DNA of 64,000 nucleotides from Candidatus Poribacteria bacterium (GTDB lineage Bacteria > Poribacteria > WGA-4E > PCPOR2b), in the NCBI GenBank assembly GCA_003635265.1, contig PYIZ01000009.1:22270-86269 (forward strand). The letters are read 5' to 3'. Below, piece by piece: positions 38,322 through 62,230 of the stretch (its first letter is position 1; the number at the start of each line of letters is the position of its first letter). Position numbers and translations under genes: made by a program. Below the pieces are notes generated by a model. The model did not search any database, was not told the DNA's origin, and saw only the letters and a program-made list of their open reading frames with translations.

Positions 38322-38385
38322 GAAAGTGCAAAACGATAAGACCGTGAAACGTGAAAACTATTGGTTCATTAGTTCATTTACAGGA
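38322..38385 (+). repeat. Conserved 60-bp leader motif, copy 1 (AAAGAAAGTGCAAAACGA...CGTGAAACGTGAAAAC...TTGGTTCATTAGTT)
   Basis: Near-identical to 41467-41525. Related cores at 57135-57180, 62171-62230 and 34503-34517. Immediately upstream of the cupin gene RBS. Confidence 0.7.
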
Positions 38386-38400
38386 GGTTTGAGAACAATA

Positions 38401-38751
38401 ATGAAAATAACCCGTCTCTATACTGGCTCCGATGGCGAGTCCCATTTTGAGGATATGGAGATTCCTCTTGAAGATAGCGGTGACATTGGCAAAATGTCAC
38501 AACTTCAAGATGCGAGAGGGATCATTTTTCGGGAAACTGGTCCCAACTATGACTATGATTGGCATACCGTTCCACAAAGACAATACGTCATAACGTTAAG
38601 TGGTGCGGTTGACATTGAGGTGGGTGATGGGACGACAAGGCGCTTTGGTCCTGGGGATATCCTCTTGGCGGAGGACACTACCGGCAAAGGGCATCGGAGC
38701 CGGGCAGTCAACGCCCAACCAAGGAAGAGTATTTTTGTGACGCTAGATTGA
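38401..38751 (+). CDS. Small cupin-domain protein
   Basis: 116 aa. Conserved cupin beta-barrel pattern (ITLSGAVDIEVGDG...FGPGDILL). The ORF opens at 38278, but a strong RBS AGGAGG precedes ATG 38401. Confidence 0.55.
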   Translation: MKITRLYTGSDGESHFEDMEIPLEDSGDIGKMSQLQDARGIIFRETGPNYDYDWHTVPQRQYVITLSGAVDIEVGDGTTRRFGPGDILLAEDTTGKGHRSRAVNAQPRKSIFVTLD

Positions 38752-38997
38752 GATATTGGTGAATTAAAAAAAGGAACCAAATCGGCAATACCCACGTTGT
38801 ATATTAGGCTATGCTCTATTCAAATTGCAACCTTTCACTTGCTTTGTTCGTTTTTATTTGCGAATTATCCGAAGCCTTATCCGGCTATTGTTGAAAGCCG
38901 AAAAGGGAAACAGGTTTCTGAATTAAGGATTGTACTTGCCCGTCGATGGAGAAGATTAAGCCTAAACTAGTACTTAATACTTAGGAGTCGAAGGAAA

Positions 38998-40347
38998 ATG
39001 AAATCGCTCAGAGACAAAAGCATGGGAAAACAGAGATTGCTTAACACTCAGAAGAAAAATTACCTCTATCATGTATGGCTGTGCCTTCTACCGATGCTCC
39101 TCATTGCCTGCAGCGGTTCTCTTGGGAAGATTCAATTGGAAAACGTCAATACTGTTATCGCACAATCTGAAGTAGCGATTGAACAGGCACACCTTGCCAA
39201 CGCTCAATACCTTGCGTCAGACACTTTGCAGCAGGCGGTAGATGCCCTTGCAAGTGCGAAGGAAGCTGTGGATGCTAAGGATGGTCTCGGAGCGATGCAG
39301 CTAGCCTATAACGCCTTGACTCAAGCACAGATTGCTGAACAAGAGGCGATGTATAAATCGCAGGGGAATGGGCTAAATGCTATCATTGAACACAAGAAAT
39401 TGCAGATTGTTGCGCTTGAAGCAGATCTAGTAACAGCAGATGAGGCACTCGAAAAATCTCGAACGGTTGTCGAGCGATTGGGGATGCAAAAGGATCAGTT
39501 GCAAGCTGACATGGACCAAAAACTTCAAGAGACTGAACAAGCACACCGAGAGATATTGCAGGATTATAATAAAGCCAAAACCGATCATGGAAACCTTCAG
39601 TTAAAATTGGATACGACCCAAACACAACTTCTCCAAGCTCAGGGTCGAGTAGAAGAGCATGAGCGTCAGATTGATCAGTTGCGTCGTGAACTGGCAGATG
39701 CTCAATTGTCGGCAGAGAAAGCCCACAAGGCGGAGGCGGATGCACGAACACAGGCAGCGGCGCAGGTACAGCGCTATTCAAATCACATTGAACAACTGGA
39801 TCAGTCTAATGTGTTAAAACGGCGAGAAGATATGCTATCCCAAAAAAAAGAGGAAGCAAAGGCTTATGTTCAGCAGCAGCGCAGAAAACAAACAGTTCGG
39901 ACCAACAGTACTTCATTGACCAATATGCAAATTGCGAGCGGTAGAGCAGTTATTAACGATTGGGCACTTGCGTGGTCGGCGAAAGATATAACCCAGCACT
40001 TGAGCAAGTACACCCAGGATGCGACGCTGGATCAGACCGTTATTCGCTCTAGCAACGAGGAACAAATCCATCTCAACCGTACACAGATGGTCGCTGCTTT
40101 GAAAAAGATGGTAGATGCCGAGTGGCAAGAAACGGATTCCAAGTTCGATGCAGACGGCGAGAGTGTTATTGCTGTCTATAGCTTTAGTCGTCTTTCACGA
40201 GATGTAGCGAGTGGAGGGGTTCCCGCTCTGCACGATTTGTGGACGCGGGAAGTGTGGGTGCGTCAAGTTAGGGCTGAGTGGAAAATTTTCCGTGAAAGTT
40301 GGCGGATTTACGAGGCGGTGCCACGGTATGGCGCTGCTGTTAATTAG
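38998..40347 (+). CDS. Lipoprotein with a long coiled-coil region and a C-terminal NTF2/SnoaL-like domain
   Basis: Lipobox LLIACSG, then about 250 aa of Q/E/A/L heptad-rich sequence. C-terminal about 120 aa has W..AW..KD....L..Y..DA...W(K/R)I..ESWR.Y. Paralogous to the C-terminus of the next ORF. Confidence 0.5.
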   Translation: MKSLRDKSMGKQRLLNTQKKNYLYHVWLCLLPMLLIACSGSLGKIQLENVNTVIAQSEVAIEQAHLANAQYLASDTLQQAVDALASAKEAVDAKDGLGAMQLAYNALTQAQIAEQEAMYKSQGNGLNAIIEHKKLQIVALEADLVTADEALEKSRTVVERLGMQKDQLQADMDQKLQETEQAHREILQDYNKAKTDHGNLQLKLDTTQTQLLQAQGRVEEHERQIDQLRRELADAQLSAEKAHKAEADARTQAAAQVQRYSNHIEQLDQSNVLKRREDMLSQKKEEAKAYVQQQRRKQTVRTNSTSLTNMQIASGRAVINDWALAWSAKDITQHLSKYTQDATLDQTVIRSSNEEQIHLNRTQMVAALKKMVDAEWQETDSKFDADGESVIAVYSFSRLSRDVASGGVPALHDLWTREVWVRQVRAEWKIFRESWRIYEAVPRYGAAVN

Positions 40348-40359
40348 GAGGGTAGATCG

Positions 40360-41454
40360 ATGCGATCCAGCGACTCTAAAATTTCCACCACATTTCAGAA
40401 TCCCAACACCCGTTTCGGCGTGATCGGTATTATCGGAGCAGCCATCATCCTCCTAGCGATGGTACTTGGGCTACAGGTTATTGAAGAGACTGGGGTGATT
40501 GATCCCTTCCTCCAACAGTGGAAACAAGCTGTCGAATCCAAGCAACCGAGATTATATCAACAGTTATGGGATTCGACCGCACGAACCAAAAACCGGAATC
40601 AGTATGAACGCGCATTGAAACTCTTCAGCAGAGAAAAGGTTGAAGCGGATATAACTGGACATCTTGCTCAGAAAGATCTCGGGAACACGAATCGACAACA
40701 GATTGAACGCATCCCTGTCACGCTCTACCAAGATGGTAAGGTTTTAGTGGTAATCTATCGGGACATAACTGTTGAAAAGAGGGGACTTTTACAACGCTGG
40801 AAACTGATAGACGATAAAATTCACGATGAGTTAGGATATCCCGAAACCACCGAGGAGTATATCGTTCAAGATCAAGAGATGGTCGCTCAATCTGCCAATC
40901 CAACGCCCGAAAGTCGTTCGTTGCAGCCCGTTGATGCTCCAATGCCTTCCAATAACGTTGTTACATCGCCTCAAGCCGCTGCGCCCAAAAGTTCCTCGCC
41001 GATTGTCGGTGAGGCACCGCTTGATACCCAGCTTAAATTGAGCCAAGTTTTGGGGGAATGGCAGCAGGCTTGGCAGGGAAAGAATCTTACAATCTATATG
41101 TCGAAGTATGCCGAAGACGCAGTGATTACAAGGGTCGCTATTAACAGGGGACGAGAATATCCGACTCGGTTGGATAAAAAACAGTTGCGCGAGAAAATGA
41201 AAGCTCTTAATGAAAGGTATAGCAAAATTAAAGTGAATATTTTTCAGTTGCAAATCCACGGAGATAGTGCGGTAGCTGATGTCAATTTCTTACAAGAATT
41301 TGTTGGTACTCGCGCCTCTGGAAGTCAACCTGTTTACTCAGATTTCGGCAAGAAAGAATTGGTTTTTATGGTGGATCCTGCCGATGGCGTCTGGAAGATC
41401 TATGCTGAGAGTTGGAGACATTATAAAAACGTCCCCAAGTATCCGAAACTTTAA
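40360..41454 (+). CDS. Membrane-anchored paralog, with a C-terminal NTF2/SnoaL-like domain
   Basis: One N-terminal TM helix (FGVIGIIGAAIILLAMVLGL) and a Pro/Ser-rich linker. C-terminal domain LGEWQQAWQGKNLTIYMSKYAED...WKIYAESWRHYKNVPKYP matches the WKIFRESWRIYEAVPRYG of the upstream protein. Confidence 0.5.
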   Translation: MRSSDSKISTTFQNPNTRFGVIGIIGAAIILLAMVLGLQVIEETGVIDPFLQQWKQAVESKQPRLYQQLWDSTARTKNRNQYERALKLFSREKVEADITGHLAQKDLGNTNRQQIERIPVTLYQDGKVLVVIYRDITVEKRGLLQRWKLIDDKIHDELGYPETTEEYIVQDQEMVAQSANPTPESRSLQPVDAPMPSNNVVTSPQAAAPKSSSPIVGEAPLDTQLKLSQVLGEWQQAWQGKNLTIYMSKYAEDAVITRVAINRGREYPTRLDKKQLREKMKALNERYSKIKVNIFQLQIHGDSAVADVNFLQEFVGTRASGSQPVYSDFGKKELVFMVDPADGVWKIYAESWRHYKNVPKYPKL

Positions 41455-41466
41455 GGTTCATGTCAA

Positions 41467-41525
41467 AAGAAAGTGTAAAATGCAAAGCGCGTGAAACGTG
41501 AAAAGCATTTGTTCATTAGTTTGTT
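41467..41525 (+). repeat. Conserved 60-bp leader motif, copy 2
   Basis: AAAGAAAGTGTAAAATGCAAAGCGCGTGAAACGTGAAAAGCATTTGTTCATTAGTT. Directly after the stop of the paralog gene and upstream of the lipoprotein gene. Confidence 0.7.
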
Positions 41526-41734
41526 GGCAGTAAGAAGCAATGATCGTTGTTCACTACCGTTTCTGTTGTATAATTTTTTAACTTGAGCCAACTTAAATCA
41601 TCATTTTGGATTAAATTACTATCACCGATTGACTGAAACCGCGCATTCATCTATGCGTTTTTGTTATTGGATAAATCTTGGCAGCCCATTTTGGCTGAAT
41701 ACACCCAAAATTTCAACCTACAAGGACAAGAACG

Positions 41735-42220
41735 ATGATTAAAATCTTACGTATAACACCAGTTCTAGCACACATGGTTTTACTCACTATTGCCCTGTGC
41801 TTGCTCAGTTGTGGCGGGAGTTCTGTTGAGAACCCGCTTGGAGAGTCGGAAGAAACCTATAATACAGTTACACAGGTAGATATGGAGAATCAATCGCTTA
41901 ACGTCAAGGTCGAGGTAAGCAAAGATACCGTCCAAGCTGGTGAGACAGTGAACATGACAGCAACTGTTGACGAACTTCGAGGCAGCAACATCATCTTTAA
42001 TTGGATCAACACAACCGATTACGGCACATTGACCGCCACAGATGAAAATAAGGCGATTTGGTCTGCTCCAGAAAAGTCGGATGGCGTAGTTAAAGTTGAA
42101 GTGCTTCAGCTTGTTGTTACAGCAATTAGCCAAATCGTCTCGGTACAATCGTCAGGAGTCGATACCGATACTGAAGTCTTGACATCAACCAAGACTATAT
42201 TACTCACTGTTACAAATTGA
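41735..42220 (+). CDS. Small secreted lipoprotein (161 aa)
   Basis: Signal peptide plus lipobox LLSCGG. Beta-rich T/V/N composition. Its 3' end overlaps the next gene by 4 bp. Confidence 0.5.
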   Translation: MIKILRITPVLAHMVLLTIALCLLSCGGSSVENPLGESEETYNTVTQVDMENQSLNVKVEVSKDTVQAGETVNMTATVDELRGSNIIFNWINTTDYGTLTATDENKAIWSAPEKSDGVVKVEVLQLVVTAISQIVSVQSSGVDTDTEVLTSTKTILLTVTN

Positions 42221-43956
42221 CAACTGGTGCTCCTGCCTTGTCACGGTCAAATTTTTATTTTGATTCAGAATTGATTAACCGATTGAGTGCTCGATCAGTT
42301 TTTTGGGAAGGAATGGTAATGCAACAGGTCCTCACCTGTGTTTTGCAATTAAATAAAAAGAAAAAAGCGCTCAGTCTGCCGACCACATACGAACACCGTA
42401 ACCATTGGCGTCTGTTCTGGGTCGGAAGCGTGGTGTTGTGGTTGTTGTGCATTTCGGTAGCCTCGGCTTCCCTTCGACCGGTGGTTGGTGCGAGGGCGCT
42501 TGGTATGGGTGGAGCATTTATCAGCAATGCTAGTGATTCAACTGGGGCGCTCTGGAATCCCGCGGGCCTTGCGAGCCTTGAGCATGGCAGTTTGGTATAC
42601 GATCTTTCTCAAGGCGCAGTTTCCTTCGGGTATCCAATCCACTCCGTAGGAACACTCGGCTTCAGCGTTTTAGATTTGAACGGCGAAGATCGCTTCTTCC
42701 ACGACCATCCGAACAACCCGGTCGGAACATTCGAGAGAGGTTATAATCAAGTTCTCCTGTCTTATGCCCGATCAATTGGCAGCCGATTCCAGCTTGGTGG
42801 GAATCTTGGATACAATCGTGCGCCGAACCCTGACAGCCAATGGGAGCCAAGTTACGACCTTGGTGCTATTGTCAAGCTGCCGCGCCATATTATCCTAGGG
42901 GCAAGGTTGATAGATATTTCTGGAGTGACCATTCCGGACCGGGAAGGAAGACTTCTGAGGCAATTCGATCAGACATTTGCCGTTGGGGCCGCATGGAAAC
43001 CGGTTCAACTGCTTCAGTTGAACAGTGTGTTGGATACAGCGCTGTGGCAGCTCAGAGTGGGCGGTGAAATCGGCGCGTATGGACTTGCGCTCCGGTTAGG
43101 TACAGCAATTGACCTGATAGGACTCCAACCAGAACCTGACTGGAGTATGGGATTTTCTGTTAATGTCCACGGCAAGCATCTCCATTACGCCTACTTGAGC
43201 CAGTCAGACGTGGCATATAAACATCTTCTTGCCGTTGGTTTGACATTTGATTTATCCGATCAAACAGTCTCGGCTTCCGTGAGCAAACAGGGGACTTCCG
43301 CAACGAGAATGAAGACTTCCGTGGTGAGAATGAAGACTTCTGTCAAGGGAAGAACGACTTCCACGGCGAGTAAAAGGGAAACCTCTGTGAAGAGAAGCGA
43401 GAAAACTCAAACAGAAAGACCTCCCAAACGTACGCCCGATAATACGAAGCGGATTGCTACTGATACAGAAGCTGCTAAAAATGCAAAATCTCCAACTGAG
43501 CAGATTGCAAAGCAGTACGAAGTCGAGGTTGATCTCATCCTTGCCTTGGTTAAAGTGGAGTCAACCTTTAATCCCAAAGCAATCTCTCCCACCGGTGCCG
43601 TTGGGTTGATGCAACTGATGCCGCCGGCGGCACAAGACCTTGGCCTCAAGATGCCATCCTATCAGAACATAAGAAAGCCGACACCACATCCCAGCGTTGA
43701 CGAACGCTTCAATCCGCTTAAAAACCTAGAAGCGGGAGTCAGATATCTGCACGAAATGCTTAAAAAGTATGATGGAGACTACGGCCTCTCACTCGCCGCT
43801 TATCATGCGGGATCAGGAAACGTGCGGAAAAACGGGAAACTCAGCCCTCAAACGGAGCGGCATGTTGGCAAAGTTCTCAAAAGCTACTATCAATACAAGA
43901 GAGATGCCACGCTAAAAAATACCGATCTTCGCAGATTGGATGCTATTCTCAGGTAG
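42217..43956 (+). CDS. Fusion protein: FadL/PorV-like outer-membrane beta-barrel N-terminal region, 7-aa tandem repeat linker, and a C-terminal lytic transglycosylase (SLT) domain
   Basis: N-terminal region has GARALGMGGAFISNASDSTGALWNPAGLA (recalled as the FadL/PorV-type barrel hallmark). C-terminus has ...LVKVESTFNPKAISPTGAVGLMQLMP...AGVRYL...AAYHAGSGNV (SLT catalytic E in the ES motif). The true start is probably internal, at the signal-like MVMQQ or later. Confidence 0.7.
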   Translation: MTTGAPALSRSNFYFDSELINRLSARSVFWEGMVMQQVLTCVLQLNKKKKALSLPTTYEHRNHWRLFWVGSVVLWLLCISVASASLRPVVGARALGMGGAFISNASDSTGALWNPAGLASLEHGSLVYDLSQGAVSFGYPIHSVGTLGFSVLDLNGEDRFFHDHPNNPVGTFERGYNQVLLSYARSIGSRFQLGGNLGYNRAPNPDSQWEPSYDLGAIVKLPRHIILGARLIDISGVTIPDREGRLLRQFDQTFAVGAAWKPVQLLQLNSVLDTALWQLRVGGEIGAYGLALRLGTAIDLIGLQPEPDWSMGFSVNVHGKHLHYAYLSQSDVAYKHLLAVGLTFDLSDQTVSASVSKQGTSATRMKTSVVRMKTSVKGRTTSTASKRETSVKRSEKTQTERPPKRTPDNTKRIATDTEAAKNAKSPTEQIAKQYEVEVDLILALVKVESTFNPKAISPTGAVGLMQLMPPAAQDLGLKMPSYQNIRKPTPHPSVDERFNPLKNLEAGVRYLHEMLKKYDGDYGLSLAAYHAGSGNVRKNGKLSPQTERHVGKVLKSYYQYKRDATLKNTDLRRLDAILR

Positions 43957-44005
43957 TAGGGGCGGGGTAGATCTGCGTTTCCTACATCAATAAATTCAAG
44001 GTTGC

Positions 44006-45208
44006 TTAAAGCCCCCAATGCTGATCAATCTCTTGCTGGTATCCACTGACCTTTCCCTCAAGTACATCAGCGATAGTCACCACTTCTCCAGAATGTCCTG
44101 ACTCATAGATTGCGATTGATATGGCTTTGGCTTGCAAACCTGTCCAACCGTCCACTTCTGGGGAGCGTCGATTCCTGATTGCGTCGATAAAATCGTAAAT
44201 CTCCAGTGCGAAGCCGTCTTCAATCCCATGCGGGAAAAGTCGGGCTTTCTCCTCATCAGTTAACGTCTCAAGGTACATCTCGCGAAGTTCCTGCATGCTG
44301 TATCGTGTCCCATCAAGTCTCTCCGCCTCCCCTCGATCCTTCGCCGTAAACGGATGAAAGACATCGCCGCTGTCGCGAATGACACCTTCGGCACCGTAGA
44401 AAGCGACATTCAGATGATTAGCACACGGTGCTGCAACCGTCCAACTCCACGTTCCAACGACACCACTCTTGAAGGTGATGATTGCTACCCAGGTATCTTC
44501 ATGGCAAGAGGGCACCTTCCCTTGTTCGGCGTGATTGGCGAATCGTCCATCAATCTGACGGACCTCGGCGTAAACCTTTTCGACTTCACCGAAGAAGTAG
44601 CGAATCGTGTCCATCATATGCGCGCCGCTGTCCATTACCATCCCGCCGCCGCTGAACTCTTTGCCCAACCGCCAATGCCAATCCCCGATATTCGCTGGAT
44701 CGTTCCAAGCTGCGGATTGTGCGAAGAATATTCGAGGTGTCCCGACAATGTTTCCTTCGTTAAGTGCCCATCTGACAGTTCGTTGTCCGGGCGTCCTGCG
44801 ACAATTCTCTGCCGTAGCGGTAAGGCGTCCATGTTTCTCCGCTACTTCAATCATCTTCTGGCTTGCTTTGATTGTTACCCCAAACGGCTTCTCCGTCATA
44901 ATATCAACGCCCGATTCAAGACATGGGATAGCGGAGATGTGGTGATAGGCATGCGACGTACAGATATCCGCCCCATTCAAATCCTCTACTTTTAGCATTT
45001 CTTCAACGTCATCGTAAACGCGGGGCATATCCCCTTGCAATTCTGCAACCTGTTCCGCATAGTTTTGCGCCGCTTCCCTACGCACATCACACGTTGCCTC
45101 AATTGAAAAGGTGTTAACCCCTTGTTCCACGAGTGCTTGATATCCTCGCAGATGTGCATTTGCGATTCCGCCACAACCAATGACCGCTAAACGAACCTTA
45201 TCTGACAC
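44006..45208 (-). CDS. Gfo/Idh/MocA-family oxidoreductase
   Basis: RLAVIGCGGIANAH N-terminus and TEKPFG EKP motif. 400 aa. Confidence 0.85.
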   Translation of the reverse strand: MSDKVRLAVIGCGGIANAHLRGYQALVEQGVNTFSIEATCDVRREAAQNYAEQVAELQGDMPRVYDDVEEMLKVEDLNGADICTSHAYHHISAIPCLESGVDIMTEKPFGVTIKASQKMIEVAEKHGRLTATAENCRRTPGQRTVRWALNEGNIVGTPRIFFAQSAAWNDPANIGDWHWRLGKEFSGGGMVMDSGAHMMDTIRYFFGEVEKVYAEVRQIDGRFANHAEQGKVPSCHEDTWVAIITFKSGVVGTWSWTVAAPCANHLNVAFYGAEGVIRDSGDVFHPFTAKDRGEAERLDGTRYSMQELREMYLETLTDEEKARLFPHGIEDGFALEIYDFIDAIRNRRSPEVDGWTGLQAKAISIAIYESGHSGEVVTIADVLEGKVSGYQQEIDQHWGL

Positions 45209-45251
45209 AGCGTTCCCCCTATAATTGATGAGACAGACTTGGAATAAAATC

Positions 45252-45280
45252 TTGACTTTTTGATAGCTTCAGTTTACTAT
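45252..45280 (+). promoter_or_regulatory. Sigma70-type promoter driving the EutN-like gene (and probably the kinase/regulator operon)
   Basis: TTGACT, 17 bp, TACTAT. About 100 bp upstream of ATG 45382. Confidence 0.5.
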
Positions 45281-45381
45281 ACCTGTGTCCATATAATTTT
45301 GTCAATAATGTTTTCATGATGCATTATGTTTTACCGAATTTGCACTTTTCGGGTAAAAAAATCAACAGGGAAAGAGTTCGT

Positions 45382-45669
45382 ATGACGGTTGGAAAAGTTG
45401 TGGGAACTGTCGTTGCCACGCGAAAAGATGAAAAACTCGTCGGTAGTAAGTTGCTGATTGTGCAGGATACCGAGCTAGATGGAACGCTCCTCAGTCGATA
45501 TACGGTCGCTGTTGATGCTGTTGGTGCGGGTGTCGGCGAGTTGGTGCTCACCGCAGCAGGAAGTTCAGCACGTCAAACTGACGTCACCAAGAACAAACCT
45601 ATTGATGCGGTGATCATGGCAATTGTCGATTCGATTGAGGTGCATGGGGAAATCCAGTTTCAGAAATAG
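45382..45669 (+). CDS. Bacterial microcompartment vertex protein (BMC-P; EutN/CcmL/PduN family), an orphan copy
   Basis: MTVGKVVGTVVATRKDEKLVGSKLLIVQ...YTVAVDAVGAGVGELVLTAAGSSARQ...PIDAVIMAIVDSIEV follows the EutN/CcmL pattern closely. No BMC-H/T shell genes are in the window. The ORF opens at 45316, but the RBS favours 45382. Confidence 0.8.
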   Translation: MTVGKVVGTVVATRKDEKLVGSKLLIVQDTELDGTLLSRYTVAVDAVGAGVGELVLTAAGSSARQTDVTKNKPIDAVIMAIVDSIEVHGEIQFQK

Positions 45670-45713
45670 CCGTTGAAACACTTCTTTGGGGGACATCGGT
45701 TGTCCATATCAAC

Positions 45714-49359: not shown

Positions 49360-49448
49360 TATTTGTTGAAGATTTCTAAGCCGTGGTGGACTGCTCGAAC
49401 GCGTCTGCCTATGTTTTTGTGCATTGTATTCGATGCCCAATTTTGCGC

Positions 49449-50573: not shown

Positions 50574-50633
50574 ACGTTTCTTAAAAACCAGACGAGATGG
50601 TTTGCAAAGGAACAATTAGAGACTATTTTAACC

Positions 50634-52904: not shown

Positions 52905-52959
52905 TTGGGGTTACTTGGTTCATATCGTCTAGGTTGCGATATCCCCGGAAGATAAGCGG

Positions 52960-53790
52960 ATGAAAAGCGTAAATGTAAAGTGCCTACTTTGCATTACAAT
53001 ATTGGCACTGGTCGTTGTCAACCAAGCTGAAAGTGACATTCGAGTTGCCCCAGATGTGGTTGGTTTAGCCGTTGGGGGAGAGTTAGTTATTGTGGGGAAG
53101 TTGTTAGCAGCAGAGGAGAAGGTGGACACGCAAATTCAGGTGCAGTATACGGATGTCGTCGTAGAGGTTGTCCAAGTCATTCGGAATATAACAGAACAGG
53201 AGATAAAGGTCGGTGCCACTATCAATTTTCGCCTCCCTGACGTGCCAATCGGTTATGGCAGATTTGAAGCGGAGTTTAGCAAAGAGGAAATAGGTGATTT
53301 ACTTCTGTTACCGCTAAAACGACCTCACCCCCGAACAACAGTGGGTCGCAGAAAAGGGTTTGACACCATTTTTGACGTTTATGGGGGAGACCATGGGAAA
53401 CACACCGTTAGAATTAAAAATGACCTTCCTATGGTGTATCTGTTTGGGCTGAAGCGAAGGGTCGAAGACCCACAATTTCGACGTTCACGTAATCGACGGT
53501 TACATAACGACCATTATCGAGAGTTGGAGATTGGATTGCCTCTTGACTGGGTTCTAGAGGTAATGAATATAGCGATTATTGTCAATGCTAGGAATCCGGT
53601 GAAAAACCCGAAAGATCCCGGAGACATACCCGCAGAAATCAGGCTTCAGTATGAACGGCTTAGAAGTTTAGAAAAATCGGTTCGCAAATTAGCACGGGAT
53701 GGCAGATCAGAAGCCTCTATTATCAAAACTGCTCGTAAAGAACTCGATCAATTTAAAGAGGAATTAGACCTAGAAAAAGGGAACGAATAA
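52960..53790 (+). CDS. Hypothetical secreted protein (276 aa) inserted between ftsI and murE
   Basis: Signal peptide (LLCITILALVVVNQAES), a charged C-terminal coiled-coil tail. No known motif. Confidence 0.4.
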   Translation: MKSVNVKCLLCITILALVVVNQAESDIRVAPDVVGLAVGGELVIVGKLLAAEEKVDTQIQVQYTDVVVEVVQVIRNITEQEIKVGATINFRLPDVPIGYGRFEAEFSKEEIGDLLLLPLKRPHPRTTVGRRKGFDTIFDVYGGDHGKHTVRIKNDLPMVYLFGLKRRVEDPQFRRSRNRRLHNDHYRELEIGLPLDWVLEVMNIAIIVNARNPVKNPKDPGDIPAEIRLQYERLRSLEKSVRKLARDGRSEASIIKTARKELDQFKEELDLEKGNE

Positions 53791-53879
53791 GACAAAAACA
53801 GGGTTTTCTTTTACACAGTGATTGTATTTTTTTTGGCTTTGTTCGTTATAGAATTTTCTGAAGGTCGGAGGTGGACTAG

Positions 53880-55337
53880 GTGGTGAACTTACATCGCTTA
53901 CTCAAAGGAGTAAATATCCTCTCATCAATTGGGGAACTCGATAAAGATATTACTGGCATTGCGAGCGATAGTCGAGCCGTGGAGCCGGGGTGCGCCTTCG
54001 TCTGCTACGAAGGTGTCAACGTCGATGGCCACACCTTTATTCCACAAGCCATCCAAAACGGCGCAACGACGATTGTTGGGGAGAAACCAGAATCGGTGCC
54101 GTCGGGTGTTACCTATATCCAAACGCCAAACGGACGCATCGCGTTCTCGCTCATCGCAGCAAATTGGTACGGGAATCCGGCGGATCGACTGAAACTGATT
54201 GGCATCACTGGTACAAATGGCAAAACCTCAACAGCGCATTTAGCGCATTCAATCTTCAAAGCTGCTGGGTTGAAATCGGGGCTCATGGGCACAGTTGGAA
54301 CCCGTTACGCAGATGTCTTTGTGGAGCCAACGATTACGACACTTGAGCCTTTGACGCTTCACGAACTGTTCCGAGACATTGCCGATGCTGGCGTAGATTA
54401 TGTCATCATGGAAACCTCATCGCAAGGGCTTGCACAACACCGATTGGCTGGACTCACTTTTGAAACGGCGGTTTTCACCAATCTGACACAGGACCATCTT
54501 GACTACCATGAGACGATGGAGGAATACCTGAATGCCAAGATGATGCTGTTTCAGCAACTCAATCCTGACAACGGTCTGGCAATCCTGAACGCCGACGATT
54601 CCGCCTCCGATTCAATCCGTCATCAAATCAACCCCCCAAGTCTCACCTTTGGGGTTGAGCAACCGGCGGATTTGTTGGTCTGTAATGTAGAGTCAACCCT
54701 CAAACGCCTCTCATTCGTCGCCGACACACCGAAGGGAAATATTTCAGCCAATCTGCGTCTGTTGGGCGATTACAACCTATATAACGCTCTCGCTGCGATT
54801 GGGATAGGGGTGCACCACGACTGCTCGCTTGAGGCGATCCAAGTGGGACTGGAATCCACAATTGTACCGGGACGATTTGAGTTGGTTGACCGAGGACAGC
54901 CTTTTGCCGTTGTCGTGGACTATGCGCATACGCCCGACGGTTTGGAAAATCTGTTGATCGCTGCACGAAAGATTACGCAGGGCAATTTAATCTCCGTCTT
55001 TGGCTGTGGCGGCGATCGGGACCGTGGCAAGCGTCCGAAGATGGGCAATATCTCCGCAACCATCGCCGATCACAGCGTTGTCACCTCCGACAACCCACGC
55101 ACCGAAGAGCCAGACGCTATCCTCGCCGATATTGTGGAAGGCTTGCCCGATGGTGCAAGTTACGATCTAATTCAGGACCGCCGGACTGCCATCGGTCATG
55201 CAATTGAGTTGGCAAAGGCGGGTGATCTTGTTGCCATCGCAGGCAAGGGGCATGAGCCGTATCAAGAGATTAATGGCGTCCGATTTGATTTCGATGACAG
55301 GGAAATTGCAGGGGAGTTTCTTGATCAGTTGAAGTAG
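53880..55337 (+). CDS. murE: UDP-MurNAc-L-Ala-D-Glu:meso-DAP ligase
   Basis: GITGTNGKTST P-loop, the DNPR motif of the DAP-adding enzyme (TSDNPR), and a Mur ligase C-terminal domain. Confidence 0.9.
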   Translation: MVNLHRLLKGVNILSSIGELDKDITGIASDSRAVEPGCAFVCYEGVNVDGHTFIPQAIQNGATTIVGEKPESVPSGVTYIQTPNGRIAFSLIAANWYGNPADRLKLIGITGTNGKTSTAHLAHSIFKAAGLKSGLMGTVGTRYADVFVEPTITTLEPLTLHELFRDIADAGVDYVIMETSSQGLAQHRLAGLTFETAVFTNLTQDHLDYHETMEEYLNAKMMLFQQLNPDNGLAILNADDSASDSIRHQINPPSLTFGVEQPADLLVCNVESTLKRLSFVADTPKGNISANLRLLGDYNLYNALAAIGIGVHHDCSLEAIQVGLESTIVPGRFELVDRGQPFAVVVDYAHTPDGLENLLIAARKITQGNLISVFGCGGDRDRGKRPKMGNISATIADHSVVTSDNPRTEEPDAILADIVEGLPDGASYDLIQDRRTAIGHAIELAKAGDLVAIAGKGHEPYQEINGVRFDFDDREIAGEFLDQLK

Positions 55338-55387
55338 CACTAATGAAATAATTTTATTCAACTACGGCATCAGGAGGTGAGTTTAAC

Positions 55388-55609
55388 ATGGATATGGGCG
55401 CAACAGCCGACCTCGCATTTTTGGGGCTAGTAATCTCATTAGTCTTTTATATTGTTCTTTTTTGGGTGCTTATACGATTCATTCGCGCAGTGGAAAAGAT
55501 CGCAGACAACTTCTGGTCAATTGCGAGGGCACATACACGTTCTGTTGACGCGATCGAAAAAGTTGCAAACAGGATTGAGAGAATCGCAGACAACGAGAAC
55601 ACCAGATAA
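55388..55609 (+). CDS. Small membrane protein (73 aa) between murE and murF
   Basis: One TM helix (LAFLGLVISLVFYIVLFWVLI) followed by a charged helix with internal repeat IEKVANRIERIADNE / VEKIADNF. RBS GGAGG upstream. Confidence 0.35.
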   Translation: MDMGATADLAFLGLVISLVFYIVLFWVLIRFIRAVEKIADNFWSIARAHTRSVDAIEKVANRIERIADNENTR

Positions 55610-55704
55610 TAGAGGCAAATTGACCTGTTCAACCGCACCTACTATTATTATCCATTCCAGTAGGCTGGGCACAGGAAACAATTGCTCATACCCCACCCAT
55701 CATT

Positions 55705-57072
55705 ATGAACCTCACAATTGCTGAAATCCTACAGACAACGCAGGGTAACCTGATCCAAGGCAATCCCAACACCGTAATAACGCAGGTCTCGACAGACTCA
55801 CGGACACTCAAAAAGGGTGACCTCTTTGTCGCACTGGTCGGTGAAAAATTCGATGGACATAATTTCCTAGAGGGCGTGTGTCAGCAAGGTGCAATCGGGG
55901 CGGTTGTCTCGAAACCAGCAGCCGATGCCTCTCAACTTGTACCGCCGATTATTGTGCAAGTGAACGATACGCTCGCTGCGCTGGGGGATATTGCCAACCG
56001 TCATCGCAGCAAGTTCGATCTGCCGATAATCGCTATCACGGGCAGCAACGGCAAGACCACTACAAAGGACATAACAACTTCTGTGTTGGCACAGCGGTTT
56101 TCCGTTTTCAAATCTGAGAAAAGTTACAACAATCAGATTGGTATCCCCTCACGATTGATGCAACTCAGCAACGCTGATGAGATTGCCGTATTAGAGATTG
56201 GCACTAGTTGGCCCGGAGAGATTGAGCGGTTGTCGCAGATAACAGCGCCGACCGTCGGAGTGATTACCAATATTGGACCGGCACACTTGGAATTGTTAGG
56301 TTCACTTGAAGGGGTTACCGAGGAGAAAGGGGCGTTGCTAACGCATGTCGAACATGCCCTCCTTAACGCTGATGATCCGATGACGCCGAGGCTTGCTGGC
56401 CGTGTATGTGGTCAAATCACCACATTTGGTTGGCATAATGATGCGGATATTGCTGCAGGCGAAATTGAGATTGACAGTTTCGGCAAGCCTACGTTCACGT
56501 TGATAATCGATGGGGATGACATTGACAGGGTGCATTTACCTTGTCTGGGAAAACATAATATCTACAATGCTCTCGCTGCCGCTGGGGTAGGTATCTGGGC
56601 GGGCTTAATGCCTGCAGAAATTTGTGCTGGGCTAGAAGGTTTTCAGCCGGCGGACATGCGGATGCAGCCGACTGTGCACAACGACCTACGCATCATCAAC
56701 GACGCCTATAACTCAAACCCAGAGTCACTCAAGTCTGCTTTGGCATTTCTTAGCGATATCGAAATAGCTGGCAAGCGAATTGCAATCCTTGGTGATATGC
56801 TTGAACTTGGCGAACATTCTCACACACTCCACCTGAAAACAGGAGTGGCTATCCCAACCAACATCAACCTATTGATTACCGTTGGTCCCCATAGCCGCGC
56901 AATCGCTGAGGGAGCGGAAGGCATCGTTGAATCTATCATCTCCTGTGATACGCCAAAGCAAGCGGCACAAGAACTGATCCAATATGTTCAACCCGGTGAT
57001 GCGGTGCTTATCAAGGGGTCACGCGGGATAAAATTGGAGCAGGTTTTGGAAGAACTGATGCGTGAAACCTAG
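55705..57072 (+). CDS. murF: UDP-MurNAc-tripeptide:D-Ala-D-Ala ligase
   Basis: ITGSNGKTTTK P-loop and Mur ligase middle and C-terminal domains. 455 aa. Confidence 0.9.
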   Translation: MNLTIAEILQTTQGNLIQGNPNTVITQVSTDSRTLKKGDLFVALVGEKFDGHNFLEGVCQQGAIGAVVSKPAADASQLVPPIIVQVNDTLAALGDIANRHRSKFDLPIIAITGSNGKTTTKDITTSVLAQRFSVFKSEKSYNNQIGIPSRLMQLSNADEIAVLEIGTSWPGEIERLSQITAPTVGVITNIGPAHLELLGSLEGVTEEKGALLTHVEHALLNADDPMTPRLAGRVCGQITTFGWHNDADIAAGEIEIDSFGKPTFTLIIDGDDIDRVHLPCLGKHNIYNALAAAGVGIWAGLMPAEICAGLEGFQPADMRMQPTVHNDLRIINDAYNSNPESLKSALAFLSDIEIAGKRIAILGDMLELGEHSHTLHLKTGVAIPTNINLLITVGPHSRAIAEGAEGIVESIISCDTPKQAAQELIQYVQPGDAVLIKGSRGIKLEQVLEELMRET

Positions 57073-57134
57073 AGTTTGGCACCTAATCACCAATGGTGCT
57101 AGTTTACAACTGTTGATATGCTTGCCGGTCAAAG

Positions 57135-57180
57135 ACCGAAGGTGAAACGTAAAATGTGAAAATCGTTTGTTCATCAATTT
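57135..57180 (+). repeat. Leader motif family, copy 3 (GGTGAAACGTAAAATGTGAAAATCGTTTGTTCATCAATT)
   Basis: Shares the GTGAAAC-GT(G/A)AAAA core and the TTTGTTCAT box with the copies at 38322 and 41467. Lies in the unusual 340-bp murF-mraY gap. Confidence 0.6.
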
Positions 57181-57410
57181 ATGAATGAGCCAATGAATTG
57201 ACGAACTCTCCTAGTAATCAGGATTTTACTCCGCTCAACTTGAACGATATGGAAACAAGATCCCCACCAAATAGCACCAAAGGCTAATAGTTTGGGTAGG
57301 ATCAGGCTTGAAATTGTCGGTTAAGCGGAAGGAAGCAGTTGCTGTCTTTCCTTCCTCATTTCTCATTGCTTCCAATTTCCAAAGGATAAACCTTAAATCA
57401 AAAGTTACCC

Positions 57411-58514
57411 ATGCTCTACTATCTATTTTTTGAACAACTGACAGAGTTTTTTTCGCCGTTGAATGTTTTTCGTTATATTAGCTTTCGGTCCATCTATGCA
57501 ACAATAACCGCGCTACTTATAGCCCTCATCTTAGGCCCTTTCGTTATTCAACATCTGAGACGATTGAAAATCGGTCAGCATGTCCGCGATGATGGTCCCG
57601 AAACCCATTTCAGCAAAGAGGGTACGCCGACAATGGGTGGCGTACTGATTATCACGTCCGTGCTGATTTCAATTTTGTTGTGGGCGCGATTGGATCAGCC
57701 TTATATTTTTATCCTCACCTTTAGTATTCTGTGGTTTGGCGGACTCGGCTTTCTGGACGATTACCGGAAGATTACCAAACAACAATCACTTGGATTGAAG
57801 GGTTGGCATAAGCTCTTTTTACAAGCAGTCGGTGCACTTGCCATTGCCTACTTCCTCTACCAATGGGGACCCGTTCCCAAAGACAGCTTGACCGAGAGAA
57901 CATCAATTATCATTCCTTTCTTTAAGCAACTTCGCCCAGACCTCGGCGTATTCTTTATTCCATTTGCAGCGTTCGTCATTGTCAGTGCGTCCAACGCTGT
58001 TAATCTTACGGACGGGCTTGATGGTCTAGCAATCGGCTGTACGCTGTTTGTCGCAGCCACATTTGGTATATTAGGCTACCTTACAAGCCACCAACAGTTA
58101 GCAAATTACCTCGACATCGCCCACATTCCAGTTGGTGGAGAGGCTGCGACTATCTTCTGTGCTGCATTAATTGGAGCCGGTGTGGGTTTTCTATGGTATA
58201 ATTGTCACCCAGCACAGGTTTTCATGGGAGATACAGGTTCGTTAGCCCTTGGTGCAGTACTTGGAACAATTTCTATCTTAATCAAGGAAGAGATTCTACT
58301 TGTGATTGTTGGTGGAATTTTTGTGGCAGAAGTGCTCTCCGTTATCATCCAAGTTGTATCTTATAAAACACGAAAAAAACGGGTGTTCAGGATGTCACCA
58401 CTACATCACCATTTTGAACAGCTCGGTTGGCCCGAGCCGAAAGTTGTGCTGCGTTTCTGGATTATTGGATTGATTTTGATGCTCGTCGCACTGAGCACCC
58501 TCAAATTGCGATAA
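57411..58514 (+). CDS. mraY: Phospho-N-acetylmuramoyl-pentapeptide transferase
   Basis: 10 TM helices, with the DD (NLTDGLDGLA) and HHH (SPLHHHFE) motifs of MraY. Confidence 0.9.
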   Translation: MLYYLFFEQLTEFFSPLNVFRYISFRSIYATITALLIALILGPFVIQHLRRLKIGQHVRDDGPETHFSKEGTPTMGGVLIITSVLISILLWARLDQPYIFILTFSILWFGGLGFLDDYRKITKQQSLGLKGWHKLFLQAVGALAIAYFLYQWGPVPKDSLTERTSIIIPFFKQLRPDLGVFFIPFAAFVIVSASNAVNLTDGLDGLAIGCTLFVAATFGILGYLTSHQQLANYLDIAHIPVGGEAATIFCAALIGAGVGFLWYNCHPAQVFMGDTGSLALGAVLGTISILIKEEILLVIVGGIFVAEVLSVIIQVVSYKTRKKRVFRMSPLHHHFEQLGWPEPKVVLRFWIIGLILMLVALSTLKLR

Positions 58515-58589
58515 TGGGAAAAGGGGCAGGCAGAAAACGGCGAAGGTTCAATAATTAAAAATAGTTCAAATCTGTGTAAGGGGAAGACC

Positions 58590-59336
58590 ATGCGACTACA
58601 GAATAAGATTGCCCTCGTCACTGGTGGGGCAACCGGCATCGGTGCTGCTACAGCTATGATGTATGCAAGAGAGGGAGCAAAAGTCATCATTGCTGATCTG
58701 AATGAGGCAGATGGTAAGGCAACTGCACAATCTATTGAAGCAGAAGGCGGCACCGCCCAGTTTATACGGATCGATGTGTCTCAAGAGGCGGAGGTTGCTG
58801 CAATGGTGGAATCCGTCGAGCAGAAGTTTGGGAGGCTTGATGTGTTGGTGACCTGTGCTGGCATCCTGCTGGGTGCAGCGGTACGGATTGATCAATTTGA
58901 CGCAGAAGCGTGGGATGCCGTCATCAGGGTCAACTTGCGGGGGACCTTCCTGTGCACTAAACATGCTGTTCCACTGATGGAAAAGAGCGGCGGTGGGGTC
59001 ATTGTGCTGATAGCGTCGGGAGCAGGGGTGACGGGGCCCAGTGCCTCCGTCGCCTACGGTGCTAGCAAAGGCGGTGTGCGTGGGTTAGGATTTACGTTGA
59101 AGAATCAGGTTGAACCGTTAGGTATCCGCGTGCATGTCGTTTGTCCCGGTAACCTCAATACACCCCTGAAGCTCAGGGCGATCGCCGAAATTGCAGAGCG
59201 GGGTGGAGAATCACCGGAGGCGGCTGTTGCTGCCGCACAATCCACCCTGTTTAAGCCGGAGGAGGTCGCCAAGGTGCTGACAGATCTCGCTTCTGACGCG
59301 GGGGTAAATGCCGACGAACTGGTATTTACAAAGTGA
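58590..59336 (+). CDS. SDR-family oxidoreductase
   Basis: TGGATGIG and NAG-equivalent motifs, and a Y..xK triad (YGASK). Confidence 0.85.
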   Translation: MRLQNKIALVTGGATGIGAATAMMYAREGAKVIIADLNEADGKATAQSIEAEGGTAQFIRIDVSQEAEVAAMVESVEQKFGRLDVLVTCAGILLGAAVRIDQFDAEAWDAVIRVNLRGTFLCTKHAVPLMEKSGGGVIVLIASGAGVTGPSASVAYGASKGGVRGLGFTLKNQVEPLGIRVHVVCPGNLNTPLKLRAIAEIAERGGESPEAAVAAAQSTLFKPEEVAKVLTDLASDAGVNADELVFTK

Positions 59337-59364
59337 CCTGAACTGCTGTCTGTTTTCTATTCAT

Positions 59365-59525
59365 TAGAACTTACGCAGTTGAACGATGAGGTGTTGTAGT
59401 TCGATCCTTCATCGCCAATGCGGGGCAGGCTCCCCCGTCGACGATGGGTGTGGTGTCTGAAAATGTCTTTTGACGCGCAATGAATTGCGCGACTACAAAC
59501 TCAAGTGTGTAACTCCTAATTGGCT
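59365..59525. repeat. Composite intergenic repeat, copy D (full length)
   Basis: AGAACTTACGCAGTTGAACGATGAG...CATCGCCAATGCGGGGCAGGCTCCCCCGTCGACGATGG...CTGAAAAT...CTACAAACTCAAGTGTGTAACTCCTAAT. Co-linear with copy C, about 85% identity by eye. Confidence 0.8.
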
Positions 59526-59674
59526 TTCGTTGGCAGTAGCAACTCTCTATTCACTTTTCGTAAATTTTTGCTGCGAGGAAATAACTCTTTACATTTTCAG
59601 TAATTTTAGTATATAATGAGTGACACACTGCTGCGAGATAGAGCAGATGCAGCAGTAACGAAAAGAGAAGGCGG

Positions 59675-60250
59675 ATGGTTTTATCAGATCGGGATATTGT
59701 TCGTTATCAGGAAATGGGGAAAATCAAAATCACTCCTCCCCCGGATCTTACTAAACAACTCGGTTCCTGTTCCATCGATTTCCGGCTAGGGAATACCTTT
59801 CGGTTGTTTGAGCACAGTAAGTATCCCTATATCGATCTGCGCGAAGATATTGATCCTAACGAACTGATGCACAAGATGGAAGTCCCCGACGGTGAAGCGT
59901 TCACCATGCAGCCGGGAGAATTTGTGCTTGCGGCAACCCTCGAAACCCTCGAACTCGCCGACGATGTGATGGCACGGCTCGAAGGTCGTAGTAGCCTTGG
60001 CAGGCTTGGCATTATTGTCCACAGCACGGCGGGGCTTTTTGATCCGGGTTGGGTTGGGACTGCGACATTAGAACTAGGAAACTTGGGACGTATGCCAGTT
60101 AAACTCTACCCCGGTATGCGGATCTGTGCATTTACATTTGAAGAGTTATCCTCTCCTGCAAAAGTACCCTATCGTCGAAAACCGGGTAACAAATATGCAG
60201 GACAAGTTGAACCGGAAGCCAGTCGTTTTGTGCGGGATTTGAATCAATAA
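59675..60250 (+). CDS. dcd: dCTP deaminase
   Basis: MVLSDRDI...ITPPPD..QLGSCSIDFRLG...VHSTAGLFDPGWVG are dCTP deaminase/dUTPase-fold motifs. Confidence 0.85.
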   Translation: MVLSDRDIVRYQEMGKIKITPPPDLTKQLGSCSIDFRLGNTFRLFEHSKYPYIDLREDIDPNELMHKMEVPDGEAFTMQPGEFVLAATLETLELADDVMARLEGRSSLGRLGIIVHSTAGLFDPGWVGTATLELGNLGRMPVKLYPGMRICAFTFEELSSPAKVPYRRKPGNKYAGQVEPEASRFVRDLNQ

Positions 60251-60474
60251 ATAGTTGTATTGCTAAAAACTTTAGCAGTAATCTGCCCAATAATTCAGCA
60301 TCTATGGATTAAGGCATTTATATTGCACCACTAATTGTATACTAGAAGGATACCTCGCATAGTGAGATAATCAGGGGCAAACCGCCTATCAGAGCCAAGT
60401 CTCTGCTACAAATAAGAAAAAGACAAGATAGAGAAAAATTAGTGTAAGTTCTCATTTTGAAAGCGATTTGATTA

Positions 60475-60491
60475 TTGGCATATCGCTTGCT
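60475..60491 (+). promoter_or_regulatory. Candidate sigma54 (-24/-12) promoter upstream of glnA
   Basis: TGGCAT-ATCGC-TTGCT matches TGGCAC-N5-TTGC, with GG and GC spaced exactly 10 nt. About 200 bp upstream of the glnA ATG. Confidence 0.5.
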
Positions 60492-60688
60492 CTATATCTT
60501 TGAGGTGTTCCGTTTTCAAATTCCATAGTTTCCAATAATTTGTTGAGTAGGGTGTATGAAAAGTGGTACAAATGTCTTCTGTTGGGAGGCTGCTCATAGG
60601 CGTTCCTGATGAGCCCGCTAGGTAATGCCAACCCTACTTCGTTTAACCGTCATTGCTTGGCTCAATATTTTAATTAAGGAGATTTTAG

Positions 60689-62131
60689 ATGACACCAAGT
60701 GAAGTCGTTGCGCTTGCAAAAGAAAAAGAGGTCAAAATTGTTGACTTTAAATTCACGGATCTGCCTGGCATGTGGCACCACTTTTCGATTCCCGCAACAG
60801 AGTTAGAGGAAGACCTGTTTGAAGATGGACTCGGTTTTGATGGTTCAAGTATTCGTGGTTTCCAAGCGATTAACGAAAGCGACATGCTCCTTTTCCCGGA
60901 TCCGGATACAACCATTGTGGATCCGGTTTGCAAAATTCCGACCCTCAGTCTTATTTGCAACATTAAGGATCCAATTACCCTAGAAAGCTATAGTCGAGAT
61001 GTGCGGCATATCGCTCAAAAGGCGGAAGCGTATCTCAAGAGCACTGGAATTGCGGATACGAGCTATTGGGGACCTGAAGCTGAATTTTTTATTTTCAACG
61101 ATGTTCGTTATTACCAAAATCAGCATTCGGCCTTTTATTCCGTTGATTCTGTTGAAGGCAGCTGGAATACAGGTAAAGGGAGTTGGAATCCAAACACAGG
61201 CGACTATGACGCGCCGAACCTCGGATACAAACCGCGTTACAAGGAAGGGTATTTCCCCGTACCGCCATCGGATACACTGCAAGATATTCGATCTGAAATG
61301 ATTCTCAAGATGATCGATTGCGGGGTTGATGTAGAGGTTCACCACCATGAGGTCGGCACCGGTGGTCAGGGTGAGATCGATCTCCGGTTTGATACCATGA
61401 CCACGATAGGCGATAAGCTGGCGCTGTACAAGTACATCATCAAGAATACAGCCCGTGCCCACAACATGACGGCGACCTTTATGCCAAAGCCACTTTTTGA
61501 AGACAACGGCTCAGGCATGCACTGTCATCAAAGTTTATGGAAGGATGGGAAAAACATCTTCTACGATCCGCAGGGATATGCCGGGTTAAGCGAAACCGCG
61601 TTGTATTACGCCGGTGGTCTCCTTAAACATCTACCGTCGCTGTGCGCTATCATTGCACCGACAACCAATTCTTACAAGCGGTTGGTCCCGGGCTATGAGG
61701 CACCGGTGAATCTTGCATATTCGCAACGAAACCGGAGCGCATGTGTCCGTATTCCTGTATACTCTCAGAGTGAGAGAGCGAAACGACTGGAACTCCGTAC
61801 ACCAGATCCTTCCTGTAACGCATATCTCGCCTTTAGCGCAATGCTGATGGCGGGTCTTGACGGTATCCGGAATCAGATTCACCCCGGTGAACCGCTTGAT
61901 AAAGACCTGTACGATCTGGAGCCAGAGGAACTGGCAGAAATTGAATCAACGCCGGGCTCCTTAGCTGAGGCACTTGATGCCTTAGAGGACGACCATGACT
62001 ACCTGCTCGAAGGCGATGTGATCACGCAGGACGTGATTGATACATGGATAGAGTATAAACGTGAAAACGAAGTCGATGCAGTCAACCTCCGTCCGCATCC
62101 ACACGAATTTCATCTCTACTATGATATTTAA
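60689..62131 (+). CDS. glnA: Glutamine synthetase type I
   Basis: 480 aa, with the GSI beta-grasp and catalytic motifs ([25 protein letters not shown] adenylylation-region residues). Confidence 0.9.
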
Positions 62132-62170
62132 TTGGTTGAATTTCATTTTCAGTTGTAGATAACAATGAGA

Positions 62171-62230
62171 GTAAAGCGTAAAACGTAAACTGTTAAGTAG
62201 GTTTCCTACGTTTCTACGCTTTACTAAAAT
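62171..62230 (+). repeat. Leader motif family, copy 4, with an internal palindrome GTAAAGCGTA...TACGCTTTAC
   Basis: GAGTAAAGCGTAAAACGTAAACTGTTAAGTAGGTTTCCTACGTTTCTACGCTTTACTAAAATC, directly upstream of glnB. Confidence 0.6.

Follow-up and report, generated by a model that had tools for sequence, protein, structure and literature searches.

Copies of the repeat in the window

The stretch analysed here (the window) comprises 64,000 nt of Candidatus Poribacteria DNA (contig PYIZ01000009.1, positions 22,270 to 86,269, forward strand). The subject is a short intergenic repeat found in it upstream of a cupin gene, upstream of a lipoprotein gene and between murF and mraY. A preliminary description had regarded this repeat as a recurring leader motif; the observation is confirmed in part, the repeat being real but not a regulatory leader. 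The near-identical sequences of about 60 bp reported before the cupin and lipoprotein genes are borne out and had been located correctly; 38307-38383 shares 81% identity with 41454-41530 across 77 nt (repeat comparison, family D3). The related copy reported before mraY is likewise recovered. An nhmmer profile made from 117 copies, all picked by exact core match, has exactly three matches within the window: 38337-38379 (E=4e-12), 41482-41526 (E=2e-11) and, at mraY, 57139-57183 (E=3e-8). The mraY-upstream site has GTGAAAC-GTAAAAT-GTGAAAA-TCGTTTGTTCAT in common with other copies. The pattern GTRAAANGTRAAA occurs six times in the window against 1.4 expected, and six was reached in no shuffle.

The three copies are built as follows. 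A and P, or X and Y, are the terminal arms of two frames; the heptamer/octamer core lies between the arms. MITE stands for miniature inverted-repeat transposable element.

38308..38383, plus strand: right-truncated type-I element, upstream of the cupin gene (repeat comparison, profile search, module mapping).
38308-38334, plus strand: left (A) arm of the cupin copy, GGTTCATATAAAAAGAAAGTGCAAAAC.
38344-38358, plus strand: heptamers of the cupin copy, GTGAAACGTGAAAAC, with octamers TTGGTTCATTAGTTCATT.
41455..41589, plus strand: complete composite element of MITE type, A/P frame, 135 nt, upstream of the lipoprotein gene.
41447..41454, plus strand: left target-site duplication of the lipoprotein copy, AACTTTAA (8 bp, one mismatch).
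41455-41481, plus strand: A arm of the lipoprotein copy, then the heptamer/octamer core at 41491-41520.
Between core and P arm, plus strand: GTAG-tagged hairpin of the lipoprotein copy (..GCAATGATCGTTGTTCACTACCG).
41560-41589, plus strand: P arm of the lipoprotein copy, TTTCTGTTGTATAATTTTTTAACTTGAGCC, inverse of the A arm.
41590..41597, plus strand: right target-site duplication of the lipoprotein copy, AACTTAAA.
57088..57284, plus strand: complete element of MITE type, second (X/Y) frame, 197 nt, between murF and mraY.
57084-57087 and 57285-57288: flanks of the mraY copy, TAAT and TAAT.
57090-57118, plus strand: X arm of the mraY copy, CCAATGGTGCTAGTTTACAACTGTTGATA.
57142-57183, plus strand: heptamer/octamer core of the mraY copy.
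57263-57284, plus strand: Y arm of the mraY copy, ..CCCACCAAATAGCACCAAAGGC.

The cupin copy is without a right arm and abuts the AGGAGG ribosome-binding site directly. The gene upstream of the lipoprotein copy (40360-41454) has its TAA stop codon within the left duplication, AACTTTAA.

Modular structure of the family

Module mapping on 142 profile hits gives a fixed module order, A-(B)n-C-F(n)-[REP hairpin]-[T/t hairpin]-P in type I and X-(B)-C-F-Y in type II, REP standing for repetitive extragenic palindrome. The modules are A = GGCTCATGTnAAAAGAAAGTGCAAAAC and its inverse P = TTTCTGTTGCACGATTTCTTAACATGAGCC, B = GTGAAACGTGATGC, C = GTGAAACGTGAAAAC, and F, consisting of TTkGTTCAT and then TrGTTCAT octamers. 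The core is made of tandem heptamers (GTGAAAC/GTGATGC) and octamers (GTTCATTR), with the formula (GTGAAACGTGATGC)0-3 GTGAAACGTGAAAAC-nATTkGTTCAT-(TrGTTCAT)0-3. Unit numbers of both heptamers and octamers differ among copies, and heptamer-only and octamer-only arrays exist too. Strict GTRAWRC heptamer arrays of 2-5 units number 105 in 0.96 Mb; none occurs in 40 shuffled loci.

Both frames end in inverted repeats. In the A/P frame the A arm GGCTCATGTnAAAAGAAAGTGC pairs with the P arm GCACGATTTCTTAACATGAGCC. The second frame, CCAATGGTGCTAG... / ...GCACCAAAGGTT, has the flanks TAAT/AATAR; its X arm CCAATGGTGCTAGTT.. pairs with the Y arm ..GCACCAAAGGTT. The type II arms (X CCAATGGTGCTAGTTTGCAGCTGTTGATA, Y ..CTCGCACCAAAGGTT) enclose the same core, and the mraY copy belongs to this type.

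The basic A/P unit is a near-perfect palindrome of 90-92 nt (about 91), GGCTCATGTnAAAAGAAAGTGCAAA..GAGAAACCGAGTTTT / AAAACTCGGTTTCTGTTGCACGATTTCTTAACATGAGCC, without a core. Longer A..P versions of 124-255 nt hold the core, GTAG-tagged hairpins or other inserts between the arms. Since the listing of A..P elements contains both the core-less unit and core-bearing versions, the 60-bp motif described earlier corresponds to an A arm plus a C/F module. Complete elements span 90-289 nt, are non-coding and are too short for an open reading frame (ORF).

Two further entries of the window show parts of this structure.

34505..34653, plus strand: degenerate core split by nested palindromic insertions (alignment with the ortholog L106 and the uninterrupted paralogs L102 and L087; L numbers designate compared Poribacteria loci). 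In order: GTGAAACGTGATGC at 34505-34518, insertion at 34519-34559, GTAAAA at 34560-34565, insertion at 34566-34631, CGTGACAACATTGGTTTATTGA at 34632-34653.
10074..10100, plus strand: solo A arm, GGCTCGTGTAAAAATAGAGTGCAACTA, without a core, adjoining an insertion sequence of the IS5 family.

The first of these had been taken for a truncated core at 34503. It is a copy of the family, but not a simply truncated one: a full heptamer/octamer module is divided by two nested insertions, both of them palindromes of the CCCGAT..ATCGGG type. Small CCCGAT(N2-4)ATCGGG palindromes are present in the window at 476-495, 32926-32945, 34526-34545, 25350-25377 and 32588-32615; in several genomes they sit exactly between core heptamer units, which suggests nested insertion.

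Heptamer arrays were considered as terminal inverted repeats and rejected: with one exception, no inverted array pairs lie within 400 nt of each other. The exception, the sole such case in the sample, is a 174-nt insertion (L043 5040-5215 and L101, against the empty L032 at about 7176) with inverted heptamer arrays at both ends, which adjoins a GTGAAAA already present in the empty allele.

Target-site duplications and empty sites

Of 30 A..P elements, 14 lie between direct repeats of 7-10 bp that differ at no more than one position; most of these are exact AT-rich 8-mers (examples: TTACAGCT, TAGGTGTT, AAAATAAT, TTTGTATA, TATAGATT, AACACTAAT). A single such 8-mer match would arise by chance with a probability of about 4e-4. 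Core-less units of 90-92 nt bear such duplications too. The X/Y frame is flanked by TAAT..TAAT in the window and by AATAR in other loci, a less certain duplication.

Over orthologous stretches the window is about 87% identical to several matching Poribacteria genomes, and filled sites are met by empty ones. In BLAST comparison, window 41455-41599 is absent from the orthologous L067, where the flanks meet at position 6010; the empty site reads AACTCTAA|TCATTTTG, with a single AACTCTAA. L023 shares the mraY element (57088-57284). L007 and L081 have a clean empty site, with a murF-mraY spacer that measures about 25 nt and holds one TAATAG or TAAC. Besides the window, L106, L082 and L067 have the cupin copy, the number of octamer units ranging from one to three; L114 (OY282444) and L115 lack it, the syntenic spacer there being occupied by unrelated sequence. 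Identity of the cupin gene is 91% in L114 and 85% in L115, and OY282444 has family copies at other positions. Thus, the lipoprotein and mraY copies have clean empty counterparts in genomes about 87% identical, and more distant syntenic genomes are without the cupin copy. Because sister or syntenic genomes lack them, all three window copies are lineage-specific insertions and not conserved leaders. Additional filled/empty pairs are seen among the compared Poribacteria loci.

A larger difference was noted beside the cupin gene. Comparison of L067 1056-3320 with window 38759-38766 shows about 2.26 kb of extra sequence in OZ252032 between the cupin and DUF4398 genes.

Distribution and position relative to genes

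An exact-pattern scan with GTRAAAYGTGAAAANNNTTNGTTCAT over one genome per species (185,579 species) gave at least 113 exact matches. Among the matches listed, all are in Candidatus Poribacteria metagenome-assembled genomes (MAGs; 19 assemblies), at positions 0.07-6.7 Mb on closed chromosomes. Single closed chromosomes have at least 11-14 strong profile matches each (nhmmer, above 30 bits, in the fetched blocks). A viral origin was rejected, the exact pattern having no match in the IMG/VR viral contigs.

The location is intergenic for 114 of 117 exact copies. The remaining three lie in ORFs of a simple ORF picker, the case in the window being an over-extended TTG start. Orientation was counted at 101 non-orthologous sites, orthologous sites having been collapsed. 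The downstream gene points the same way as the repeat at 55 sites and the opposite way at 41 (p=0.18); for the upstream gene the corresponding counts are 51 and 43 (p=0.47). The distance to the next gene is variable, with medians of 125-215 nt. The constant orientation directly after a stop codon, reported earlier, therefore holds inside the window but not over the independent sites, where orientation relative to genes is random; within the window it is uniform because the genes from 36.9 to 64 kb are nearly all on the plus strand. These counts likewise do not uphold the earlier lean towards a global regulatory element. The preliminary description had also held that genome-wide copies placed at random relative to genes, and inside coding sequences, would mark a selfish repeat; orientation is indeed random genome-wide, but coding sequences are avoided. 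Replichore polarity like that of FtsK-orienting polar sequences (KOPS) was rejected, there being no two-block orientation pattern along closed chromosomes.

Interpretation and alternative explanations

The motif is very probably the left arm plus the internal tandem-repeat module of a mosaic, non-coding, MITE-like family that is abundant in, and confined to, Candidatus Poribacteria. The family shows terminal inverted repeats and target-site duplications; its copies are dispersed through intergenic DNA in random orientation, vary in unit number and are limited to one phylum, with empty sites in sister genomes. Of six MITE features, five are present: short non-coding sequence, inverted repeats, duplication, dispersed copies and filled/empty sites. 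The miniature repeat is accordingly the only one of the four explanations offered earlier to survive, with terminal inverted repeats, target-site duplications and empty sites in its favour.

An 8-bp duplication together with inverted ends implies a DDE-type transposase acting in trans. The palindrome of about 91 nt would insert with duplication of an 8-bp AT-rich target, and the A/P frame would be mobilised by a DDE transposase with an 8-bp staggered cut. Insertion-sequence families known for duplications of 8 bp, among them ISL3, IS1595, IS6, IS66 and IS256, are candidate sources of such an enzyme. For the X/Y frame, another DDE transposase with a 3-5 bp AT-rich duplication is envisaged. The modules between the arms would be passengers, the core being one and the GTAG-tagged REP-like hairpins another. 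Replication slippage in the heptamer and octamer arrays would change their unit number. Small palindromes and GTAG-tagged REP-like hairpins would nest inside, maybe by a route of the HUH or REP-associated tyrosine transposase (RAYT) kind. Insertions may affect neighbouring genes, a possible case being a hairpin that would form in the murF-mraY transcript.

Several points weigh against a MITE-like family. In about 0.96 Mb of Poribacteria DNA, a search of inverted A-arm pairs 0.5-6 kb apart, long within-genome repeats and ORFs beside solo arms revealed no autonomous insertion sequence whose ends match. Three candidate parents, the IS5-family element of the window (10115-11002), a DDE_Tnp_1 element in L087 and a Tn5-like element of the IS4 family in L014, have unrelated terminal repeats and were rejected. 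About 40% of cores are without recognisable arms within 260 nt; these solo cores begin exactly at the heptamers, and their boundaries are without a clear inverted repeat or duplication. They may have arisen by a second route (repeat recombination, or a mechanism of HUH/RAYT type) or may be decayed remnants. Copy numbers per genome are lower bounds only. Finally, conservation across different frames seems highest in the core, perhaps a sign of selection, but this comparison is confounded by the collection of copies through exact core matches.

The heptamers GTGAAAC-GTGAAAA had been likened to a response-regulator site, and the copies could on this account be transcription-factor operators (e.g. 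for a winged-helix response regulator) that form a global regulon. In favour of this, the core recurs strongly in intergenic DNA and abounds in direct repeats, and all three window copies are directed at the downstream gene. Sites of the OmpR/PhoB type are direct repeats too, but are spaced at 10-11 bp, whereas the heptamers are contiguous with a period of 7 bp. The copies have no fixed promoter position, are randomly oriented at the 101 sites at variable distance from genes, and behave as mobile DNA, with inverted repeats and target-site duplications at their boundaries. Orthologous sites in genomes about 87% identical lack them, as do more distant syntenic genomes, and the adjacent genes are functionally unrelated. 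We know of no fit to the operator consensus sequences of Cra, ArgR, TyrR, Fur or integration host factor (IHF), or to the -35 element of extracytoplasmic function (ECF) sigma factors. An operator is thus highly improbable. A structured RNA (5' leader, riboswitch or small RNA gene), also proposed earlier, is scarcely credible. The copies do lie in untranslated spacers, and the arms of whole elements can pair (z -1.9, -1.7), but such pairing is expected of any inverted-repeat element and either orientation relative to genes occurs. The core has no structure when folded against shuffled controls (z -0.27, +1.23, +0.02), and Rfam gives no match at gathering or lenient thresholds. No sigma-70-like promoter or intrinsic terminator was found inside the elements on the plus strand; the only good hexamer is a TTGACA on the minus strand, in the complement of the A arm and pointing outwards, and is recorded as a curiosity.

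Two other explanations accept mobility. Spread by a REP/RAYT-type mechanism (HUH Y1 transposase), as in REPINs and bacterial interspersed mosaic elements (BIMEs), rather than by a DDE transposase, would agree with the solo cores without target-site duplications and with the many copies followed by hairpins with an opposite-strand GTAG tag (e.g. GTCGGGCTAGGAAGCCCGAC-CTACGG, GCGGGGCAAGATGCCCCGC-CTACG). The 8-bp duplications and long terminal inverted repeats of the A/P frame are not products of HUH transposition, however, and the core is not palindromic; this mechanism is rather unlikely. It is quite unlikely that the elements are mobile but carry the core as a functional passenger, either a binding cassette for nucleoid-associated or other host factors or a landing pad for CCCGAT..ATCGGG palindromes. 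Retention of the core in two unrelated MITE frames and in solo copies would be explained, the same core occurring in both the A/P and the X/Y frame as well as by itself; small palindromes lie repeatedly and exactly between heptamer units, and heptamer-only and octamer-only arrays point the same way. IHF sites occur in the RIP (repetitive IHF-binding palindromic) elements and BIMEs of Escherichia coli and in the Correia elements of Neisseria. On the other side, direct evidence of binding or selection is absent, conservation is confounded by the way copies were collected, B-Q-C composites could be copied as units rather than hit independently, and the arrays freely alter their unit number. A putative Poribacteria-specific protein-binding cassette (nucleoid-associated or regulatory) or palindrome docking site, captured by two unrelated MITE frames and spread through intergenic DNA, is accordingly held with considerable doubt; if it exists, the distribution of the core would wire the expression of genes or the structure of the chromosome in these sponge symbionts, which are uncultured.

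Comparison with known repeat families

The MITE-like family resembles other MITEs in being small and non-coding, with terminal inverted repeats, fixed-length duplications, dispersed intergenic copies, filled/empty polymorphism between close relatives and insertion in operon spacers. It differs in being without a parent insertion sequence in the DNA examined, and its internal cargo, common to two frames, is unusually modular. Correia elements duplicate TA, whereas the Poribacteria elements duplicate 8 bp (A/P) or have TAAT/AATAR (X/Y).

Enterobacterial repetitive intergenic consensus (ERIC) elements, or intergenic repeat units (IRU), are similar in having an imperfect palindrome of about 100 nt as the unit, longer variants formed by internal insertions, and an extragenic location, often in transcribed spacers. 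Their sequence is unrelated and their hosts belong to another phylum; to our knowledge, regular target-site duplications have not been described for ERIC elements. The BIMEs of E. coli and the BOX elements of Streptococcus pneumoniae are likewise mosaics of short modules in fixed order with variable numbers of internal units, in which REP-like hairpins are joined with non-palindromic linker motifs. They lack long inverted repeats and 8-bp duplications at their ends, and their modules are unrelated in sequence.

Cyanobacterial short tandemly repeated repetitive (STRR) sequences are short tandem 7-nt arrays, intergenic, with variable unit number and without known function. The likeness is one of form only (tandem intergenic 7-nt units, variable copy number); the Poribacteria unit is GTRAWRC, occurs in 2-5 units usually inside mobile elements, and belongs to another phylum.

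According to Di Nocera et al. (2013; PMC3733652), the GTAG tag is a feature of REP superfamilies. REPs and REPINs are resembled by the hairpin modules beside the core, which end in CTAC(GG), equivalent to GTAG plus palindrome on the other strand. The core itself has neither fold nor tag; the imperfect palindrome of 20-40 nt with a GTAG or CGTC tag that characterises REPs is confined to the neighbouring hairpins.

Hairpin upstream of glnB and other repeats

The sequence upstream of glnB (62171-62226) had been counted as a fourth copy of the leader. It is not a family member (nhmmer E=1.8), and GTAAARC heptamers are the sole common feature.

62170..62225, plus strand: single-copy hairpin in the glnA-glnB spacer, not a family member (inverted GTAAARC heptamer runs).

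The stem measures about 20 bp (RNA z=-5.0). The hairpin is nearly invariant in the orthologous L007, L023 and L081 and matches fewer than five of the other Poribacteria loci. There is no T-run after the stem and no Rfam match. It could be a regulatory or processing structure of the glnA 3' or glnB 5' end.

The spacer downstream of glnB (window 62780-63047; L081 5595-5699; L007 7399-7437) holds different repeats in each genome: a minus-strand copy of the core in L007 and L081, a GCGCTCC family in the window and an extra insertion sequence in L007. It looks like a hot spot of repeat turnover.

The IS5-family insertion sequence at 10115-11002 has an ORF on the minus strand (10132-10938; DUF4096 and DDE_Tnp_1) and the ends GAGAGCCTGTTTTAAAAG. 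It lies within a repeat mosaic and adjoins the solo A arm at 10074-10100. Loci L020 and L108 of OZ252032 have in common a 667-nt stretch, 99.7% identical between them and each 85-87% identical to the window element. A repeat of about 155 nt has three window copies (11004-11126, 35152-35307 and 59364-59519), contains the GTAG-tagged REP-like hairpin GCGGGGCAAGATGCCCCGC-CTACG and ends in ..ACTACAAACTCAAGTGCGTAAGTCCTAT; it is also mobile, since the 35.2-kb copy is absent from the orthologous L106. Two short repeat families, at 30407-30458 and 62960-63040, are common to many Poribacteria loci, one consisting of GGCATACGGAGTATGCC plus CTAC, the other of GCGCTCCAGAGGAGCGC hairpins with ATGTATAG tails.

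Significance

A full-text literature search found no paper linking Poribacteria with intergenic repeats and none containing the core sequence; for Poribacteria and mobile genetic elements it returned only general sponge-microbiome and unrelated papers. The family therefore seems undescribed in Poribacteria, while the kind of element is well known: the repeat is an ordinary kind of selfish repeat. In annotation the copies upstream of mraY, the cupin gene and the lipoprotein operon should be masked as interspersed repeats, not recorded as promoters, operators or small RNAs. The elements could act as strain markers in sponge metagenomes and are a likely cause of assembly breaks. Poribacteria, a phylum of sponge symbionts, are known from MAGs and single cells only. 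They have active or recently active small mobile DNA, which differs between genomes about 87% identical and lands in essential operons (murF-mraY); one copy lies directly after a stop codon.

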